A stretch of DNA of 64,000 nt from Mustelus asterias (GCF_964213995.1 NC_135830.1:5394001-5458000); one strand, 5' to 3'; numbered from the stretch's first letter, positions 6,805 to 55,590 are shown. Numbers and translations: made by a program. Notes: generated from the sequence alone by a model not told the origin.

Positions 6805-7315
6805 GATATTTGAAATATACAGACATTAAATCATCCAACCTGGAGAGACACGAGGACATCTACACCATAGAGAACCCATGGGAATGTGGGGACTGTGGGA
6901 AGGAATTCAGTTCTCCATCCAGCTGGAAGCACATCAGCGCAGTCACACTGGGAAGAGTCTGTTCATCTGCACCGTGTGTGGGAAGAGTTTTAGTCGAATG
7001 TTCAACCTTCGCACTCACCAGCGACTTCACACTGGGGAGCGACCATTCACCTGCTCTGTGTGTATGAAGGGATTCAGCAGTTCATCTCACCTGCTGAAAC
7101 ACAAGCGTGCTCACACTGGGGAAAGGCCTTTCACCTGCTCTGTGTGTGGGAAGAGATTCACTAACTCATCTGATCTCCTGATACACCAGCGAATTCACAC
7201 CGGGGAGAGGCCGTTCACCTGCTCCATATGTGGGAACAGATTCACTCAGTCACAAAACCTAATGAGACACCAGCGAGCTCACAAGTCTTCCGGAGGTAGA
7301 TTCCCCAGTTACTGA
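6805..7315 (+). pseudogene. C2H2 zinc-finger unit B, frameshift in first finger
   Basis: Acceptor ctttcacag ends 6804. Finger 1 begins in frame 6810 and ends in frame 6878, then four intact fingers follow. An assembly error cannot be excluded. Confidence 0.75.
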
Positions 7316-9226: not shown

Positions 9227-10101
9227 GGTTTTAGAAGAGGAGGATATGCAGTCAGGAAACTTGTACCAAACGTCACATCAGGATCTGATGGAGTCACCCA
9301 ATTTATCAGAACTGGAAAATATTTTGAACATGGAAGGAAAAAGCACCGTTCACAGTGAGGAGAAACCGTACGTGTGTTGTGTGTGTGGACAAGATTTCAG
9401 ACGATTCGCTGTCCTGTCCAGACACAAGCGCAGTCACACTGGAGAAAAACCATGGAAATGTGGGGAGTGTGGGAAAGGATTCAATTATCCATATGAGCTG
9501 GAAATTCACCAACGCAGTCACAATGGGCAGAGGCCGTTTACCTGCTCTGTGTGTGGGAAGGGATTCACTCAGTCATACACCCTACTGATACACCAGCGAC
9601 TTCACACTGAGAAAAAGCTGGTGTGGGAAGGGATTCATTCAATCATCCCATCTCATGACACATCAGCGAATTCACACTGGGGAGAGACCCTTTAAATGTC
9701 CAGACTGTGGGAAAAGCTATAAATGTTCTGGTGAGCTGATGCTCCATCAACGTGTTCACACTGACGAGAGACCATTCAAATGCTCCCAGTGTGGAGCAGG
9801 GTTCAGGCGATCATCTCAACTCATTTCACACCGGCAAGTTCACATGGAGGAGAGACCTTTCAAATGTTCAGACTGCGGGAACTGCTATAAACGTCCCAGG
9901 GACCTGATGCTCCATCAACGTATTCACACTGATGAGAGACCATTCCGGTGCTCTAACTGTGGGACTGGATTCAGGCGATCATCTCATCTCACTGTCCATC
10001 AGCGAATTCACACTGGGGAGAGACCGTTCACCTGCTCCGTGTGTGGGAAGAGCTTCACTCAGAAATCCAACCTGCTGACACATCGACAGATTCACAAGTG
10101 A
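9227..10101 (+). pseudogene. C2H2 zinc-finger unit C, internal deletion/frameshift near 9615
   Basis: Acceptor tttcacag ends 9226. ORFs 9246..9695 (3 fingers) and 9655..10101 (5 fingers) are out of frame with each other. Confidence 0.8.
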
Positions 10102-22136: not shown

Positions 22137-22895
22137 ATGGAGAAACCGTGGAAATGTGGGGACTGTGGGAAGGGATTCAGGTTCCCATCTGAGCTGGAAA
22201 CTCATCGACGCATTCACACTGGGGAGCGGCTGTTCACCTGCTCTGTGTGTGGGAAGGGATTCTATGATTCATCCAACCTGCAAACACACCAACGAATTCA
22301 CACGGGGAAGAGACCATTCACCTGTTCTGATTGTGGTACCGGATTTACTCAGTTATGTCATCTGCAGACACACCAGCAAATTCACACTGCGGAGAGACCG
22401 TTTACCTGTCCTGTGTGTGGGAAGGGATTCACTGACTTATCCAGCCTGCGGATACACCAGCGAGTACATTCCGGGGAGAGGCCGTTCAACTGTCCTGTGT
22501 GTGGGAAAGGATTCACTTGGTTATCCAGCATGCGCAGACACAAAGTCAGTCACACCAATGAGAGACCCTATAAATGCTCTGAATGTGGGAGCGACTTCAA
22601 AAGCTCTCAGGTTCTGATGTCCCACCAGCGCATTCACACTGAGGAGAGACCGTTCAGTTGCTCTCACTGCTCAAAGAGATTTAGAATGTCATCCTATCTG
22701 CGGGTACACCAGCGAGTTCACACTGGGGAGAAACAATTCACTTGCTCTGCCTGTGGAAAAGGATTCACTCAGTTAACCAATCTGCAGAGACACCAGCGAG
22801 TTCATACTGGGGAGAGGCCATTCACCTGCACCTTGTGTGAGAACGGGTTCACTCAGTCATCCCACCTGCAGACACACCAACGAGTTCACAAGTGA
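22137..22895 (+). CDS. C2H2 zinc-finger protein, unit D, 9 fingers, 252 aa, no KRAB
   Basis: accATGg start, [14 protein letters not shown]..., nine intact fingers. Exon acceptor ttttacag ends 21786. Confidence 0.85.
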
Positions 22896-23859: not shown

Positions 23860-25213
23860 CGTCAAACCTGGAGAGTTACAAGGCCGTCCATACCCTGAAG
23901 ATATGATGGAAATGTGGGGATTGTAGGAAAGGATTCCATGCCCCCTGTGAACTGGAAACCAATCGACCCAGGCACAGCAGAAAGAAGCTGTTCATCTAAT
24001 CTGTGTGTGGGAAGGGATTCATTGATTCATCCACTCTGCAGCGACACCAGCGAGTTCACACTAGGGAGAGGCCATTCACCTGCTCTGTATGGGGGAAGAG
24101 ATTCAGTAATTCCTCCATTCTGCTGATATACCAGCAAGTTCACACTGGGGAGAAACCGTTCACTTGTTCTGAGTGTGGGAAGGGACTCAATGACTCATCA
24201 ACCCTGCTGATACACCAGCGCATTCACACTGGAGAGAGGCCATTCCCCTACTCTGAGTGTAGGAAGGGATTCACTCAGTTATCCAATCTGCTGAGACACC
24301 AGTGCACTCCCCACCAATGAGAAAACCTTTAAATGCTCTGATTGTGGGAGTTGTTTCAGAAACTCTGCCGACCTGAAGATCCACCAGTGCATTCATACTG
24401 GGGAGAGACCGTTCTGCTGCTCTCACTGCACAAGGAGGTTTCGAACATCATCCAAGCGACTGAGCCATTGGCGAGTTCACACTGGGGAGAGGCCTTTCAC
24501 CCACCCTGTGTGTGAACATATAGAACACTACAGCACAGAACAGGCCTTTCGGCCGACGATGTTGTGCCGAGCTTTATCCGAAACCAAGATCAAGCTATCC
24601 CACTCCCTATCATCCTGGTGTGCTCCATGTGCCTATCCAATAACCGCTTAAATGTTCCTAAAGTGTCTGACTCCACTATCACTGCAGGCAGTCCATTCCA
24701 CACCCCAACCACTCTCTGCGTAAAGAACCTACCTCTGATATCCTTCCTGTATCTCCCACCACGAACCCTATAGTTATGCCCCCTTGTAATAGCTCCATCC
24801 ACCCGAGGAAATAGTCTTTGAACGTTCACTCTATCTATCCCCTTCATCATTTTATAAACCTCTATTAAGTCTCCCCTCAGCCTCCTCCGCTCCAGAGAGA
24901 ACAGCCCTAGCTCCCTCAACCTTTCCTCATAAGACCTACCCTCCAAACCAGGCAGCATCCTGGTAAATTTCCTCTGCACTCTTTCCAGCGCTTCCACATC
25001 CTTCTTATAGTGAGGTGACCAGAACTGCACACAATATTCCAAATGTGGTCTCACCAAGGTCCTGTACAGTTGCAGCATAACCCCACGGCTCTTAAACTCC
25101 AACCCCTGTTAATAAAAGCTAATGTGTGGATGGGAGTCACTTGGTCATCGGAGCTGCTGGGACACTCGGGCAGTCACACTGATTGGAGCCTTTCTTGATG
25201 CTCTGACTGTGGG
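23860..25213 (+). pseudogene. C2H2 zinc-finger unit E, degraded and split by a LINE at 24516-25122
   Basis: ORF 24003..24320 has fingers with lost Cys/His, stops and frameshifts. Finger-like sequence resumes at about 25123. Confidence 0.8.
24516..25122 (-). mobile_element. Young CR1-type LINE 3' fragment, same subfamily as 51772-55590
   Basis: The translation of ORF 24590..25102 is nearly identical to the C-terminus of ORF 51856..54873. Confidence 0.92.
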
Positions 25214-34959: not shown

Positions 34960-35279
34960 TGTAATTTTTGGATATTGCCTGTGTTCAAACTGACTGAAGC
35001 CCCTTCCTCTCTCCAACTCTCACTCCACAAAACGAAGATTAGTGACTTTCGTTCAGAAATACCTTCGGAATGAATACTTACTGAATGACCAGGAAACTGG
35101 AAATGTGATTACAAATTCAAATAATTGCAACATTGACTAATTTAAGGGTCGTACATTAATAGCAAGAGTTGACCATTCGGACCCTGAAGTCTCCTCCATA
35201 GTTCACTGAGATTGCAGATGAACTGGTTGTGGTGCTAGCTCTATTTTGCACCTCCTCACTCCGCCCGTCGATCACCCAC

Positions 35280-36130
35280 TCTCTGCCCATTTTCCCTGGC
35301 TCTCTGCCCTTTCCCCTGGCTCTCTGCCATTCCCTGTGGCTCCTTTCCCCTGGCTCTCTACACTTCCACCTGGCTCTCGACACTTCCCTCCAGCTCTGTG
35401 CCCTCTCCCCCGGCTCTCTGCCCTTTCCCTCAGCACCCTACCCTTTCCCCCGGCTCTCTGCCCGGTGTCCCTGCTCACTATTCTCTTTCCCCTTTCCCCT
35501 GGCTCTCTGCCATTCCCTGTGGCTCCTTTCCCCTTTCACCCGGCTCTCTACACTTCCACCTGGCTCTCGACACTTCCCTCCAGCTCTGTGCCCTCTCCCC
35601 CGGCTCTCTGCCCTTTCCCTCAGCACCCTACCCTTTCCCCCGGCTCTCTGCCCTCTGTCCCTGCTCACTATTCTCTTTCCCCTTTCCCCTGGCTCTCTGT
35701 CCTTTCCCCCGGCTCTCTGCCCTTCCCCCCTGACTCTCTGTCTTTCCCCCTGACTCTCTGCCCTTTCCCCAGGGCTCTTTTGCACTTTTCGTCGGCTCTC
35801 TGTCCTTTCCCCGGCCTCCCTGCCCTTTATCCTGGCTCTCTCCTCTTTCCCTGATCTCCCTGCCATTTCCTCCATCTCGCTGCCTTTTCTCCTGTTTCTC
35901 TGCCCTTTCACCTGGCTCCCTGCCCTTTCCATTGGCGCTCTTTCCCATTTCTCCTGGCTCTCTGCCCTTTCTCCTGGCTCTCTGCCCTTTCCCCCGGCTC
36001 TCGGCCCTTTCCCCAGACTCTGTGCCCCCCCCCCCCCCCCCCCCGCCCGCCCCAGCTCTCTGCCCTTTACCACGCCTCCTGTTCTCCCCGGCTCTTTCCC
36101 ATTGTCCTTGGCCCTGAGCCCCCAGGGATT
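35280..36130. repeat. ~20-bp tandem array (ctctgccctttcccctggct) with a ~190-bp higher-order duplication
   Basis: The unit is visible throughout; cagctctgtg blocks recur at 35391 and 35581. Confidence 0.9.
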
Positions 36131-36229: not shown

Positions 36230-37430
36230 GTTTAGCGAGTGTGAGTGAGAGAATGTGAGTGCGTGAGGGTGAGCGATTGAAGGAGTGAAAGTGGATGAGT
36301 GATGGTGTGTGAGTGATGGAAGGTGGGTAAGTGAGGGTGAGTGATTGAGTGTGAGTGATTGAGTGTGAGTGAGTAAGTGTGGGTGAGGGTGAGAGAACGT
36401 GAGTAAATGAGGGTGTGTGAGAGAGGGTGGGTGAGTGAAGGTGGCTGAATGTGTGAGTGAAGGTGGGTGAGTGAGTATCGGTAAGAGAGAATGAATGAAT
36501 GAGGGTGAGCGAGTGAGGATGCGTGAAGGTTAGTGAAGGTGGGTGAGTGAGAGCGAGTGAATGAGGGTGAGGAGTGAATGTGACTTAGTAAGTGAGGGTG
36601 AGAGAGTGAGTGAGTCAGGGTGTGTTATTGAGGGTGGTGTGAGAGTGTGTGAGGGAGAATAAATGCGGATGGGTGGATGAGTGAAGGTGAGTGAGTGAAG
36701 GTGTTTGAGTGAGGATGAGTGATTGAGGATCTGTGAGTTAGGGTGGGTGACCTTGAGTGATGGTGAATATGTGAGGGTGTGTGAGTGAATGTAGGTGCGT
36801 GAGTCTCAGTGAGTTTGAATGGGTCAGGTGGCATACGTGAGAGAGAGAGGGTGATTGAGCTTGAGTGTGTGGGGGTGAGTCTGGGTAAGCGAGGGTGGGT
36901 AAGTGGGGAGAGTGAGTGAGGGCGAGTGAGAGGGAGTGAGACTGGATAAGTGAGGGAGGGTAAATGCGGTGAGTGAGTGAGAGTGATTGAGACAGGATGA
37001 GTGAAGGTGGGTAAGTGGGGTGAGTGAGGGTGAGTGAGAGTGAGTGAGACTGGATAAGTGAGGGTGGGTAAGTAGCGTGAGTGAGTGAGAGTGAGTGAGA
37101 CTGAGTAAGTGAGGGTGGGTAAGTAGGGTGAGTGAGTGAGAGTGAGTGAGACTGGGTGAGTGAGGGTGGGTTAGTGGGATGAGTGAATGAAGGTGACTAT
37201 GAGTGTTGGTGAGTGACTGAGGCTCTGAGTGAGTGACTGAGGGTTAGTGAGTGAGGTTGAGTGAGTGATGGCGCGTGAGTGTGGGTAACTGAGTGACAGT
37301 GAGTGAATGGGGATGAGTGAGTGAGGATGTGTGAGGGTGAGTGGGTGTGAGTGAGTGAGTGCTGGTGAGTGAATGAGGGTGTGAGCGTGAGTGAATGAGG
37401 GTGAGTGAGTGAATGCGAGTGAGTAAGTGG
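36230..37430. repeat. Degenerate (GAGT)n/(GGGT)n array
   Basis: Direct inspection. Confidence 0.9.
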
Positions 37431-50529: not shown

Positions 50530-51775
50530 AGTCTAGTTCCTTTATCAACAACAACTACGAATGAAGTTTATATCAGTCAAGGTACTATATCAGTAATTAT
50601 CATTAACACACTGGACTTTGTTTCAGTTTAAACCTGTCTCAGTCCTGTATCAGTAATTATTACTAATACACTTGGCTCCATCGCAGTTCATATAAATCTC
50701 GGTCCAGTATCATTAATTACTCGGCGCTGTCTCAGTTCATGTCGCATAAGCTCCTATATCAGTAAAACTGCGCTAGACACTGTCTCAGTTTTCTTTTCCT
50801 TGGCAATGTCATTTTTTAAAATGTTTCTTTCATGCGATGTGGCTGTCATTGGAATTTGGCATTTGACCATCCCCACATGGCACTCGGCACTAACTCATTT
50901 CTATTTTGTTGGATCTGGCCCCTGTTTATATTAAAACACAGTCTGGTTCTGTTAATACTCTGCTAGATCGAAATTCAGTTTATATTGCACGAGACATTCT
51001 CTCTGGATACGTAATATTTGATACCGACCCTGTATACATTTCACTAGACTGTGTCAGTGTTATTCCTGCACTTAACTATAGCTGTTTGAATTATGTCTGT
51101 ATTACTACATGGTTCTGCGAGAAGAAGAGATAATATGTTGGGATAAAAACATTGTTATCAGGCAGGATCCAGAAACGGGCAGTATTGGATCGACAGTATT
51201 TGGTTGGTGCAGTCTTGGAGGGCCGATAGGCCTTTCCCTGTGCGGTGATTTTCTTTGTTTTTTTGTTCTTTATTGACAACGCATGCTACACAGGGCTTGG
51301 TATCCATTTTCAATGCAGTCAGCAGAAGTACATTTCAGATATCGCTTCTTCTTTTCCCGTGCCCAAAACCTCATAAAGTTTGCAGAGAATTGTATTCCCC
51401 CAACCACTTCCCTCATTACTGGCATTGCCCAGTGCAGTTAAAAACTGAGACCATGTCCAATACAATATAAACGTGGACAGGGTCAATTGCAGAAATAAGA
51501 CTGCATCTCGTTTAATGCAAATAGAGATAGGTCTATATTAATATAAACAGAGACAACGTCTCGCTTAATATGAACAGAAACATGGTAACGTATAATATAA
51601 CGTCTCACAGCGTCTAATTTAGTATAAACAGATGCAACATCCAGTTTCATATGAGTAGAGACAGGCAATATAATGTTGTACGTGCAATATAAAAATAGTT
51701 AGGGTCCAGTGAAAAATCAACAAAGGCATGGCTTCATAATATAAGCTGACAGAGGGTAAATTTACTGTAATATAG
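50530..51775. repeat. Degenerate minisatellites: ~60-bp units (50530-50790) and two oppositely oriented 27-bp arrays (about 50905-51110 and 51430-51775)
   Basis: Consensus near ctagaccctgtctctgtttatattgca and its reverse complement; 9-aa periodicity in spurious ORFs 50906 (+) and 51483 (-). Confidence 0.7.
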
Positions 51776-51855
51776 AACATAGAACATAGAACAGTACAGC
51801 ACAGAACAGGCCCTTCGGCCCACGATGTTGTGCCGACCTTCATCTGAAACCAAGA

Positions 51856-54762
51856 TCAAGCTATCCCACTCCCTACCATCCTGGTGTGCTCCATGTGCCT
51901 ATCCAATAACCGCTTAAATGTTCCTAAAGTGTCTGACTCCACTATCACTGCAGGCAGTCCATTCCACACCCCAACCACTCTCTGCGTGAAGAACCTACCT
52001 CTGATATCCTTCCTATATCTCCCACCATGAACCCTATAGTTATGCCCCCTCGTAATAGCTCCATCCACCCGAGGAAATAGTCTTTGAACGTTCACTCGAT
52101 CTATCCCCTTCATCATTTTATAAACCTCTATTAAGTCTCCCCTCAATCTCCTCCGCTCCAGAGAGAACAGCCCCAGCTCCCTCAACCTTTCCTCATAAGA
52201 CCGACACTCCAAACCAGGCAGCATCCTGGTAAATCTCCTCTGCACTCTTTCCAGCGCTTCCACATCCTTCTTATAGTGAGGTGACCAGAACTGCACGCAA
52301 TATTCCAAATGCGGTCTCACCAAGGTCCTGTACAGTTGCAGCATAACCCCACGGCTCTTAAACTCCAACCCCCTGTTAATAAAAGCTAACACACTATATG
52401 CCTTCTTCACAGCTCTATCCACTTGAGTGGCAACCTTTAGAGATCTGTGGATATGGACCCCAAGATCTCTCTGTTCCTCCACAGTCTTCAGAACCCTACC
52501 TTTGACCCTGTAATCCACATTTAAATTAGTCCTACCAAAATGAATCACCTCACATTTATCAGGGTTAAACTCCATTTGCCATTTTTCAGCCCAGCTTTGC
52601 ATTCTATCTATGTCTCTTTGCTGCCTACAACACCCCTCCACCTCATCCACTACTCCACCAATCTTGGTGTCATCAGCAAATTTACTGATCCACCCTTCAG
52701 CCCCCTCCTCTAAGTCATTAATAAAAATCACAAAGAGCAGAGGACCAAGCACCGATCCCTGCGGCACTCCGCTAGCAACCTGCCTCCAGTCCGAAAATTT
52801 TCCATCCACCACCACCCTCTGTCTTCGATCAGATAGCCAGTTACCTATCCAATCGGCCAACTTTCCCTCTATCCCACACCTCCTTACTTTCATCATAAGC
52901 CGACCATGGGGGACCTTATCAAACGCCTTACTAAAATCCATGTATATGACATCAACCGCCCTACCTTCATCAACACACCTAGTTACCTCCTCAAAAAATT
53001 CTATCAAATTTGTGAGGCACGATTTGCCCTTCACAAATCCGTGCTGACTATCCCGGATTAATCCGCATCTTTCTAAATGGTCGTAAATCCCATCCCTAAG
53101 GACCTTTTCCATCAATTTACCAACCACCGAAGTCAGACTAACCGGTCTATAATTACCAGGGTCATTTCTATTCCCTTTCTTAAACAGAGGAACAACATTT
53201 GCCACTCTCCAGTCCTCTGGCACCATCCCCGTGGACAGCGAGGACCCAAAGATCAAAGCCAAAGGCTCTGCAATCTCATCCCTCGCCTCCCAAAGAATCC
53301 TAGGATACATTTCATCAGGCCCAGGGGACTTATCGACCTTCAGTTTATTCAAAACTGCCAATACATCCTCCCTCCGAACATCTATTTCCTCCAGCCTATT
53401 AGCCTGTAACACCTTCTCTTCCTGAAAAACATGGCCCCTCTCCTTGGTGAACACTGAAGAAAAGTATTCATTCATCACCTCGCCTATCTCTACTGATTCC
53501 ATACACAAGTTCCCACCACTGTCCTTGACCGGCCCTAACCTCACCCTGGTCATTCTTTTATTCCTCACATAAGAGTAAAAAGCCTTGGGGTTTTGCTTGA
53601 TCCGACCCGCCAAGGACTTCTCATGTCCCCTCCTAGCTCTCCTCAGCCCCTTTTTCAGCTCGTTCCTTGCTAACTTGTAACCCTCAGTCGAGCCATCTGA
53701 ACCTTGTTTCCTCATCCCTACATAAGCTTCCCTCTTCCTTTTCACAAGACATTCCACCTCTTTTGTGAACCACGGTTCCCTCACTCGGCCATTTCCTCCC
53801 TGCCTGACAGGGACATACCTATCAAGGACACCCAGTATTTGTTCCTTGAAAAAGTTCCACTTTTCATCAGTGCCTTTCCCTGACAGTTTCTGTTCCCATC
53901 TTATGCCCCCTAATTCTTGCCTAATCGCATCATAATTACCTCTCCCCCAATTGTAAGCCTTGCCCTGCCGTCCGGCCCTATCCCTCTCCATTGCAATAAC
54001 AAAAGACACCGAATTGTGGTCACTATCTCCAAAGTTCTCTCCCACAACCAAATCTAACACTTGGCCCGGTTCATTTCCCAGTACCAAATCCAATGTGGCC
54101 TCACCCCTTGTCGGCCTATCCACATATTGTGTCAGGAAACCCTCCTGCACACACTGCACAAAAAGTGCCCCATCCAAACTATTTGACCTACAAAGGTTCC
54201 AATCAATATTTGGAAAGTTAAAGTCCCCCATGACAACTACCCTGTGACCCCCACACGTATCCATAATCTGCTTAGCAATTTCTTCCTCCACATCTCTATT
54301 ACTATTTGGGGGCCTATAGTAAACTCCTAGCAACATGACCGCTCCTTTCCTGTTTCTAACTGCAGCCCATATTACCTCAGTGTGCATATCCCCCTCAAAG
54401 TGCTTTTCCGCAGCCGTTAAACTATCCTTGATTAACAATGCTACTCCTCCACCTCTTTTACCAGCTTCCCTACACTTACTGAAACATCTATACCCCGGAA
54501 CGTCCAACAACCATTCCTGTCCTTGTTCTACCCACGTCTCCGTAATGGCCACAACATCGTAGTCCCAAGTAGCAATCCACGCCCCAAGTTCATCCACCTT
54601 GTTCCGGATGCTCCTTGCATTGAAGTAGACACACTTCAACACATCTTCCTGTCTACCGGTACCCACCCTTGACCTTGATACCTTCCCCAATACCTCACCA
54701 CCCTCAACACTGACTTCTGGACTACAACTCCTTTTCCCACTCCCCTGACAAATTAGTTTAAA
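51856..54762 (-). CDS. LINE ORF2: APE endonuclease and reverse transcriptase, no stops
   Basis: YFNARS, ITETW, YRPP, GDFN and SDH (APE); DFSKAFD, GVPQGS and FADD (RT). No AUG before the APE domain. Confidence 0.93.
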   Translation of the reverse strand, partial: FKLICQGSGKRSCSPEVSVEGGEVLGKVSRSRVGTGRQEDVLKCVYFNARSIRNKVDELGAWIATWDYDVVAITETWVEQGQEWLLDVPGYRCFSKCREAGKRGGGVALLIKDSLTAAEKHFEGDMHTEVIWAAVRNRKGAVMLLGVYYRPPNSNRDVEEEIAKQIMDTCGGHRVVVMGDFNFPNIDWNLCRSNSLDGALFVQCVQEGFLTQYVDRPTRGEATLDLVLGNEPGQVLDLVVGENFGDSDHNSVSFVIAMERDRAGRQGKAYNWGRGNYDAIRQELGGIRWEQKLSGKGTDEKWNFFKEQILGVLDRYVPVRQGGNGRVREPWFTKEVECLVKRKREAYVGMRKQGSDGSTEGYKLARNELKKGLRRARRGHEKSLAGRIKQNPKAFYSYVRNKRMTRVRLGPVKDSGGNLCMESVEIGEVMNEYFSSVFTKERGHVFQEEKVLQANRLEEIDVRREDVLAVLNKLKVDKSPGPDEMYPRILWEARDEIAEPLALIFGSSLSTGMVPEDWRVANVVPLFKKGNRNDPGNYRPVSLTSVVGKLMEKVLRDGIYDHLERCGLIRDSQHGFVKGKSCLTNLIEFFEEVTRCVDEGRAVDVIYMDFSKAFDKVPHGRLMMKVRRCGIEGKLADWIGNWLSDRRQRVVVDGKFSDWRQVASGVPQGSVLGPLLFVIFINDLEEGAEGWISKFADDTKIGGVVDEVEGCCRQQRDIDRMQSWAEKWQMEFNPDKCEVIHFGRTNLNVDYRVKGRVLKTVEEQRDLGVHIHRSLKVATQVDRAVKKAYSVLAFINRGLEFKSRGVMLQLYRTLVRPHLEYCVQFWSPHYKKDVEALERVQRRFTRMLPGLECRSYEERLRELGLFSLERRRLRGDLIEVYKMMKGIDRVNVQRLFPRVDGAITRGHNYRVHGGRYRKDIRGRFFTQRVVGVWNGLPAVIVESDTLGTFKRLLDRHMEHTRMVGSGIA

Positions 54763-55590
54763 TCCCCCTGAAGAGCCGTAGCAAATTTCCCTCCCAGGAT
54801 ATTGGTGCCCCTCTGGTTCAGGTGCACCCCGTCCTGTTTGTAGAGGTCCCACCTTCCCCAGAACGTGTTCCAATTATCCACGTATCTGAAACCCTCCCTC
54901 CTGCACCATCCCTGCAACCACATGTTTAAGTGCACTCTCTCCCTGTTCCTCAACTCGCTATCACGTGGCACCGGTAGCGTACCAGAGATGACCACATGTT
55001 TTGTCTTTGCTCTCAGCTTCCAGCCGAGCTCCCGAAATTCCTGTTTTAAATCCCCGTCCCTCCTCTTACCTATGTCGTTGGTACCAATGTGTACCATGAC
55101 TTGTGACTGTTTCCCCTCCCCCTTAAGAATCCGGAAAACACGGTCCGAGACGTCACGGACCCTGGCATCCGGTAGGCAACAAACCATCCTCGAGTCTCTT
55201 TTGCTGCCACAGAACCTCCTATCTATCCCTCTAACTAACGAGTCCCCAATAACTATTGCCCTCCCGCTCTCCTCCTTACCCTCCTGAGCCACAGGGACGG
55301 ACTCAGTGCCGGAGATCCTCTCACTGCGGCTCACCACTGGTATGTCGTCCCCCTCAACCGTATCCAAAGCGGAATACTTATTGCTAAGGGGAACGACCAC
55401 AGGGGATCCCTGCACCGACTGCTTCTTCCCAGCCCCTCTCACCGTCACCCATCTATTTTCATTCCGCGGAGTAACTGTATCCCTGAAGCTTCTGTCTATG
55501 GCCATCTCTGCATCCCTAATGATCCTAAGTTCCTCCAACTCCAGCTCCAGTTCCCTTACACGGTTTTGGAGGAGCTGCAGATGGATGCAG
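54753..55590 (-). CDS. LINE ORF1, partial: coiled coil and SGNH/GDSL esterase domain
   Basis: IVIGDSL, HIGTND and DGVHLN blocks. Confidence 0.88.

Follow-up and report, generated by a model that had tools for sequence, protein, structure and literature searches.

CR1 elements carry a 3' tandem-repeat tail without poly(A) and are frequently truncated at the 5' end. CR1-group elements are the dominant retrotransposons in most vertebrate species (PMC13343379), and the class to which the element described here belongs is that of the canonical vertebrate CR1 with an esterase ORF1 (subgroup 7, ORF1 type IVB in PMC4120745; Canonical-CR1 in PMC13343379). The element shares with canonical CR1 an ORF1 encoding a zinc finger/leucine zipper and an esterase, an ORF2 encoding an endonuclease and a reverse transcriptase, a short 3' UTR with a tandem-repeat tail, and the same ORF1/ORF2 junction as found in published consensi. 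The word 'frameshift' has no occurrence in the main texts of PMC4120745 and PMC13343379, and an ORF1-ORF2 fusion product lies outside their description. A term search of PMC3905857, PMC2734521, PMC3894237 and PMC2881922 was likewise negative. No report of frameshifting in CR1 was found in the literature searched, in which older papers are incompletely covered and an earlier remark is possible.

The translation of LINE ORF2 has been described as an open question (PMC3894237). L1 and SART1 resemble CR1 in having a bicistronic RNA in which ORF2 depends on translation of ORF1, and reviews attribute ORF2 translation in both to ORF1-dependent reinitiation (PMC2881922, PMC3894237, PMC10275272). Reinitiation yields a separate ORF2p, and the stop-start UAAUG of SART1 is absent from the CR1 copy studied here. 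Closer in description are the Dictyostelium elements TRE5-A and TRE3-A, for which a review legend states that a -1 frameshift is needed for ORF2 (PMC5911963); these are distant elements with another ORF1, and the likeness to CR1 is one of description. A review of frameshifting names HeT-A and TART among non-LTR elements, and the term 'CR1' does not occur in the part of it that was searched (PMC5009743).

The window analyzed here is a stretch of 64,000 nucleotides from Mustelus asterias, and the element occupies positions 51772..55589 on its minus strand, as do all features given below. It is a young, 5'-truncated CR1 LINE whose truncation point is 55589 and which matches a longer copy (L161) at 99.66% identity across 3818 nt. 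The ORF1 start and the 5' UTR are missing owing to the truncation, and the combination of 5' truncation with such high identity to a longer copy indicates that the window copy was dead on arrival and that its family is very young. The ORF1 remnant, including its stop (54753..55589), has its zinc finger cut off and retains a coiled-coil region and an SGNH/GDSL esterase (Pfam PF13472, E 9.5e-12); the complete ORF1 in locus L002 encodes 308 aa with CxxC...CxxC at the N-terminus, a zinc finger. ORF2 contains an endonuclease domain (about 54627-54016; Pfam PF03372, E 2.6e-24) and a reverse transcriptase domain (about 53175-52456; Pfam PF00078, E 6.1e-32), both of which pass the cut-off. The short 3' UTR (51772..51855) lacks poly(A) and is terminated by three 7-nt units (51792-51772), and in its tail and its truncation the copy matches the features of CR1. 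The closest named homologues of the element come from sharks and rays.

ORF2, counted from the slip site, runs from 54762 down to 51856 (51856..54762). ORF1 closes with GAT TTA AAC TAA, which places the slippery heptamer U_UUA_AAC at 54756..54762 in the X_XXY_YYZ phase of ORF1, directly adjoined by the stop TAA at 54753..54755. The C of the heptamer and the first two letters of the stop form the first -1 codon (Leu). The original prediction had these positions and this phase exactly, and it was equally right that the -1 frame (TTT AAA CTA ATT TGT) is ORF2, which is open through the heptamer for 968 codons up to the ORF2 stop. No ORF2 Met precedes the APE domain in this copy, also as predicted: the first in-frame ATG is codon 125 (54385..54387), about 84 codons into the endonuclease homology, which begins at about codon 41 (54639). 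The 41-codon linker between the heptamer and this homology (54640..54755) is unconserved, open in the -1 frame and without an ATG in the window family, and the G-rich tract said to lie downstream of the heptamer is present at 54736..54745. The two strands of the window together contain 25 instances of TTTAAAC; a single copy consequently proves little, and the case rests on conservation.

A first look with the junction DNA gave 1437 candidates in the genome (G000). Divergent ORF1 proteins were used as queries to pull other families from this genome, and junctions were placed using queries without the last 14 residues; the resulting loci are best matches rather than a random sample, with L032 (without junction) omitted and two locus pairs representing the same place. 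Own-genome searches with P0068 and P0079 were empty at E 1e-50, a cut-off so stringent that their outcome carries no weight. The junction is identical over 110 nt in all 30 of the closest loci, the window copy included. Among the 149 fetched loci, ORF1 ends with TTTAAAC in 142, TTTAAAT in three and neither in four. A stop follows the heptamer in 137 of 146 heptamer-bearing loci, and the -1 phase from heptamer to endonuclease is kept in 116 of the 144 loci where both were placed, an endonuclease start counting as placed if within 330 nt and both counts including the metagenome locus L091. The remaining 28 of 144, including the sole F5 copy, are out of phase through indels, often in G-runs, and look like decayed copies. 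The TTTAAAC-stop arrangement and its -1 phase, whose conservation had been put forward as a check on the original prediction, are kept both within the subfamily and far outside it. Linkers of different families have no sequence relationship, and most are open in the -1 frame, with 4-12 stops in the +1 frame, and the -1 phase is kept at linker lengths of 40-42, 48, 58, 63, 67 (L091) and, in one copy, 101 codons. Within the window family (F1), 47 of the 48 in-phase loci have an open linker.

Conservation of the heptamer was separated from conservation of the peptide by a codon test in which nine hand-assigned families, with esterase identities of 43-85%, were each represented by a single copy. 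These families share 38 invariant degenerate residues, and the codon is invariant in only five: two Asp, one Cys, the terminal Leu (TTA) and the terminal Asn (AAC). With the terminal Leu and Asn set aside, the codon varies in 33 of 36 invariant residues; all eight of the other invariant Leu columns vary, each using 2-5 codons, and TTA accounts for 19 of the 104 Leu codons of the element. TTA is preceded by T in 9/9 families even though the residue to which that T belongs varies. Because the codons, and not merely the residues, are invariant, the constraint acts on nucleotides, and sequence comparison thus indicates that the slip site is under nucleotide-level selection.

The same ending is seen in proteins from other animals. 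A collection of 200 homologous proteins, made with queries that contained the LN end and may slightly bias the ranking, included 136 with a complete esterase end; 82 of these end in LN, 9 in GN, 3 in KN, 6 in another residue followed by N, and 36 in a residue other than N. LN, GN and KN correspond to translation of the heptamers U_UUA_AAC, G_GGA_AAC and A_AAA_AAC, respectively, with KN known from protein only and the GN DNA from one locus. The residue before LN is one whose codons are unable to end in T in just 1/82 proteins, versus 35/82 and 23/82 at the two preceding positions, and the residue before GN is Gln in 9/10. Since K/E/Q/M/W are scarce at positions -7, -9 and -10 ahead of LN as well (5, 3 and 5 of 82), the test at the -3 residue is suggestive, providing support rather than proof. 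Named proteins ending in LN come from a lizard, turtles, a swallow and an eel. In a quick ORF1 esterase tree, built with the last 12 residues removed, LN is found in 29/33 rows of the vertebrate CR1 branch, where the window family groups with lizard, turtle and bird proteins. Two branches are wholly without the ending, a probably L2-type one of Astyanax proteins (12 rows) and a second of 7 rows, indicating that the signal is lineage-specific.

A metagenome scan for the GN/KN group gave two loci, of which L092 stops short of the junction. The other, L091, is a contig of the GN group with an esterase identity of 30-38%, and its ORF1 ends G_GGA_AAC_TAG, followed by a 67-codon linker and then ORF2 in the -1 frame; a different canonical heptamer thus stands in the same place and phase. 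One ATG lies just upstream of the heptamer in L091 and another in the linker. DNA of the amniote-type relatives had no match in viral contigs or plasmids, and a prokaryote genome match for them (L093) was a bacterial esterase and was dropped. Published consensi were also searched. The supplement of PMC13343379 is searchable for roughly the initial 400 letters per consensus and offers no denominator; with placement judged by eye, the heptamer plus TAG or TAA lies at the esterase end in 17/20 matches, from sharks, rays, a chimaera, bowfin, halosaur, coelacanth, frog and crocodilians. The heptamer plus TGA gave three matches there, and the one inspected is a bearded dragon (lizard) consensus. The supplements of PMC7140322 contain no match for the junction, and the two matches in the PMC4316615 supplement files searched are both inside ORF2. 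The ORF1/ORF2 junction site is a real, selected feature.

The explanation that very probably accounts for this feature is that ORF2 is made as an ORF1-ORF2 fusion via programmed -1 frameshifting at the conserved heptamer. This reading, which was also that of the original prediction, draws its support from the heptamer and its phase, the open linker, the lack of an ATG in the subfamily, the nucleotide-level conservation and the heptamer swap in a distant lineage, with the usual downstream structure absent. A small fraction of ribosomes would slip back one base at the heptamer, and tRNA-Leu and tRNA-Asn would re-pair from UUA/AAC to UUU/AAA. After the slip, a Leu codon would take in letters of the stop, and translation would yield a fusion of esterase, endonuclease and reverse transcriptase, about 1274 aa long. 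Most ribosomes would terminate to give ORF1p, and a high ORF1p:ORF2p ratio would result. The protein search found no in-frame fused ORF1-ORF2 proteins, which is weak evidence.

Coronaviruses shift frame at U_UUA_AAC. The same heptamer is the shift site of PRRSV ORF1ab (PMC9000960), and nidoviruses of this kind use it in the same phase as CR1 to join an upstream ORF to a polymerase ORF. As in canonical -1 PRF signals, the CR1 heptamer lies in the 0-frame phase, is conserved at the nucleotide level and precedes a functional ORF whose -1 frame is open across the heptamer. A stem-loop or pseudoknot 5-9 nt downstream, in contrast, was not found by folding, which gave no stable stem to seed a pseudoknot, and by this missing structure the site departs from the canonical signal. 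PRRSV has a pseudoknot 5 nt downstream, whereas none is predicted in CR1 and the stop adjoins the heptamer. Folding of the RNA 3' of the slip site, another check suggested with the original prediction, gave no structure better than shuffles in the window copy (z -0.39 to 0.06) and none that is stable in 10 other elements (z -1.45 to +2.35). The window copy alone has a predicted hairpin around the slip site (z 0.15).

The candidate stimulator is the conserved G-rich motif (54736..54745), which begins 10 nt past the heptamer. G occupies 8/10 of its positions in 8-9 of nine families, third codon positions included, for which the background is 481/1253. The motif is present in most published consensi (crocodilian, lizard, shark), is absent in the halosaur and one dogfish consensus, and also encodes Gly-x-Gly in ORF2. 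No common long-range pairing partner was found for it in 10 elements, among which neither L091 nor the window family is represented; in 4/10 of them the four best candidates include a weak ORF1 match of 6-8 bp, about 645 nt upstream, ranked without a shuffle control. A G-quadruplex stimulator would call for four conserved G-tracts starting 6-8 nt past the heptamer; a G-quadruplex is predicted in 5/10 other elements at some folding length, two-tier where the structure was printed, and only two G-tracts are conserved. LINEs need little ORF2p, and a low unstimulated shift rate might be sufficient for CR1. A U_UUA_AAC reporter without a stimulator shifts at 0.4%, and G-quadruplexes are able to stimulate -1 shifts at this heptamer (PMC3919603). 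A linear low-complexity motif 10 nt downstream without RNA structure is also seen in the arterivirus nsp2 shift, which involves PCBP and nsp1beta (PMC9000960); the arterivirus site combines a C-rich motif with the heptamer G_GUU_UUU, as opposed to the G-rich motif and U_UUA_AAC of CR1, and the likeness is an analogy only. We infer, more weakly than the shift itself, that the G-rich motif, perhaps with the adjacent stop, may stimulate the shift, a role otherwise filled by a hairpin or pseudoknot.

The improbable alternative that fares best is termination-reinitiation, as in L1 and SART1, at a linker ATG or near-cognate codon, with the conserved ending as a cis signal. An in-frame linker ATG is present in 13/13 loci of family F3, 4/4 of F1b and L091, so reinitiation could operate in some families, and GTG and TTG codons precede the endonuclease in the window copy. 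An ATG is found in 2/28 loci of F2, and in the very young window family it is absent from 48/48 in-phase loci. The claim that no AUG precedes the APE domain holds for the window subfamily and fails in some other families, in which the ATGs stand in varying, unconserved places. The window family has no SART1-type AUG at or overlapping the ORF1 stop and no ORF2-frame ATG for 125 codons; L091, by comparison, has its ATG just upstream of the heptamer. Moreover, reinitiation fails to predict either the X_XXY_YYZ pattern and its switch to G_GGA_AAC or a -1 frame that is open back to the heptamer over 40-101 unconserved linker codons.

It is very unlikely that the heptamer is a by-product, either of a Leu-Asn C-terminus kept for protein function or of a DNA/RNA motif with a non-decoding role. 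Leu-Asn is indeed invariant at the protein level in the vertebrate clade, and the G-rich motif can be read as Gly-x-Gly in ORF2; however, the terminal codons are invariant against free synonymous change elsewhere, endings in other lineages are Gly-Asn or Lys-Asn with the preceding residue altered to fit the heptamer, and ORF2 would be left without a start. Least credible of all is a joining of the frames in RNA, whether through polymerase slippage on a G-run upstream of the heptamer or through use of a splice acceptor downstream of the stop. The upstream G-run is present in two families, and in L042, L058 and L151 one extra base there brings ORF1 into the ORF2 frame; F2, F3 and L091 lack the run, however, and the CAG that follows the stop in four families is missing from F2 and F3. 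Both signals were rejected as not conserved, and contigs of four runs (related organisms, RNA by guess, contigs dropping rare variants) have no shared joint. Among the contig rows listed (40, with 107 more) there is no change of heptamer or stop and one 3-nt linker deletion, and the base before the heptamer differs in the contigs of all four runs.

A broader and more tentative proposal extends programmed frameshifting beyond the window family. It is possible, if rather doubtful, that in vertebrates at large and in distant animal lineages the reverse transcriptase of esterase-type CR1 is produced only as an esterase-endonuclease-RT fusion, by a structure-free -1 shift stimulated by a protein (host or ORF1p) on the G-rich motif, which would constitute an ancient trans-regulated recoding switch.

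The conserved slip site offers a precise answer to how CR1 ORF2 is translated, one that is open to reporter testing, and it bears on the rebuilding of active CR1 elements for cell assays. If the frameshift is true, CR1 would provide a signal of this type that does without the customary RNA structure, and ORF2 annotations begun at the first ATG would cut into the endonuclease. CR1 ORF2p would carry an esterase and an overlooked N-terminal linker, and CR1 would follow a gag-pol-like strategy.

At three fetched loci carrying the CR1 junction (L042, L058, and L151), one additional base in the G-run directly 5' of the TTTAAAC heptamer places ORF1 and ORF2 in the same frame, and the L151 junction sits within an open frame of 1009 amino acids. 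The extra bases are probably homopolymer errors, arising from either reverse transcription or assembly.

The window itself contains a second copy of the young CR1 family to which the element at 51772..55589 (-) belongs, comprising only the 3' part (24520-25122, 96% identity). Approximately 12 older CR1-like fragments lie elsewhere in the window, and none of these contains ORF1. Five tandem arrays with an 84-nt period (1464-1976, 6931-7283, 9622-10030, 22164-22890, and 24000-24302) look like C2H2 zinc-finger repeats, and the setting of the window seems to be a zinc-finger gene cluster. Two neighboring degenerate tandem arrays (35279-36027 and 36309-37429) have opposite skews, one being C/T-rich and the other G/A-rich.

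Four homologous proteins (P0008, P0033, P0173, and P0203) carry database names as a Pseudomonas hydrolase, a ribosomal protein isoform, a kinase, and a prefoldin; these look like mis-annotated LINE ORF1 proteins. The Pseudomonas-named hydrolase shares 71% identity with ORF1 of the window copy. Eight ORF1 proteins in or near the group ending in Gly-Asn (P0113, P0119, P0138, P0104, P0137, P0117, P0129, and P0180) have the endings WGFLGRV, FFR, EN, SN, and FN. These endings could reflect additional slip sites, such as G_GGU_UUU.

The esterase-type element on metagenome contig L091 (595-4433) shares 30-38% identity with the shark-type families. Within CR1/L2, PMC4120745 describes the esterase ORF1 as exclusive to vertebrates, and it is because of this restriction that identifying the host of the Gly-Asn/Lys-Asn group would be worthwhile.
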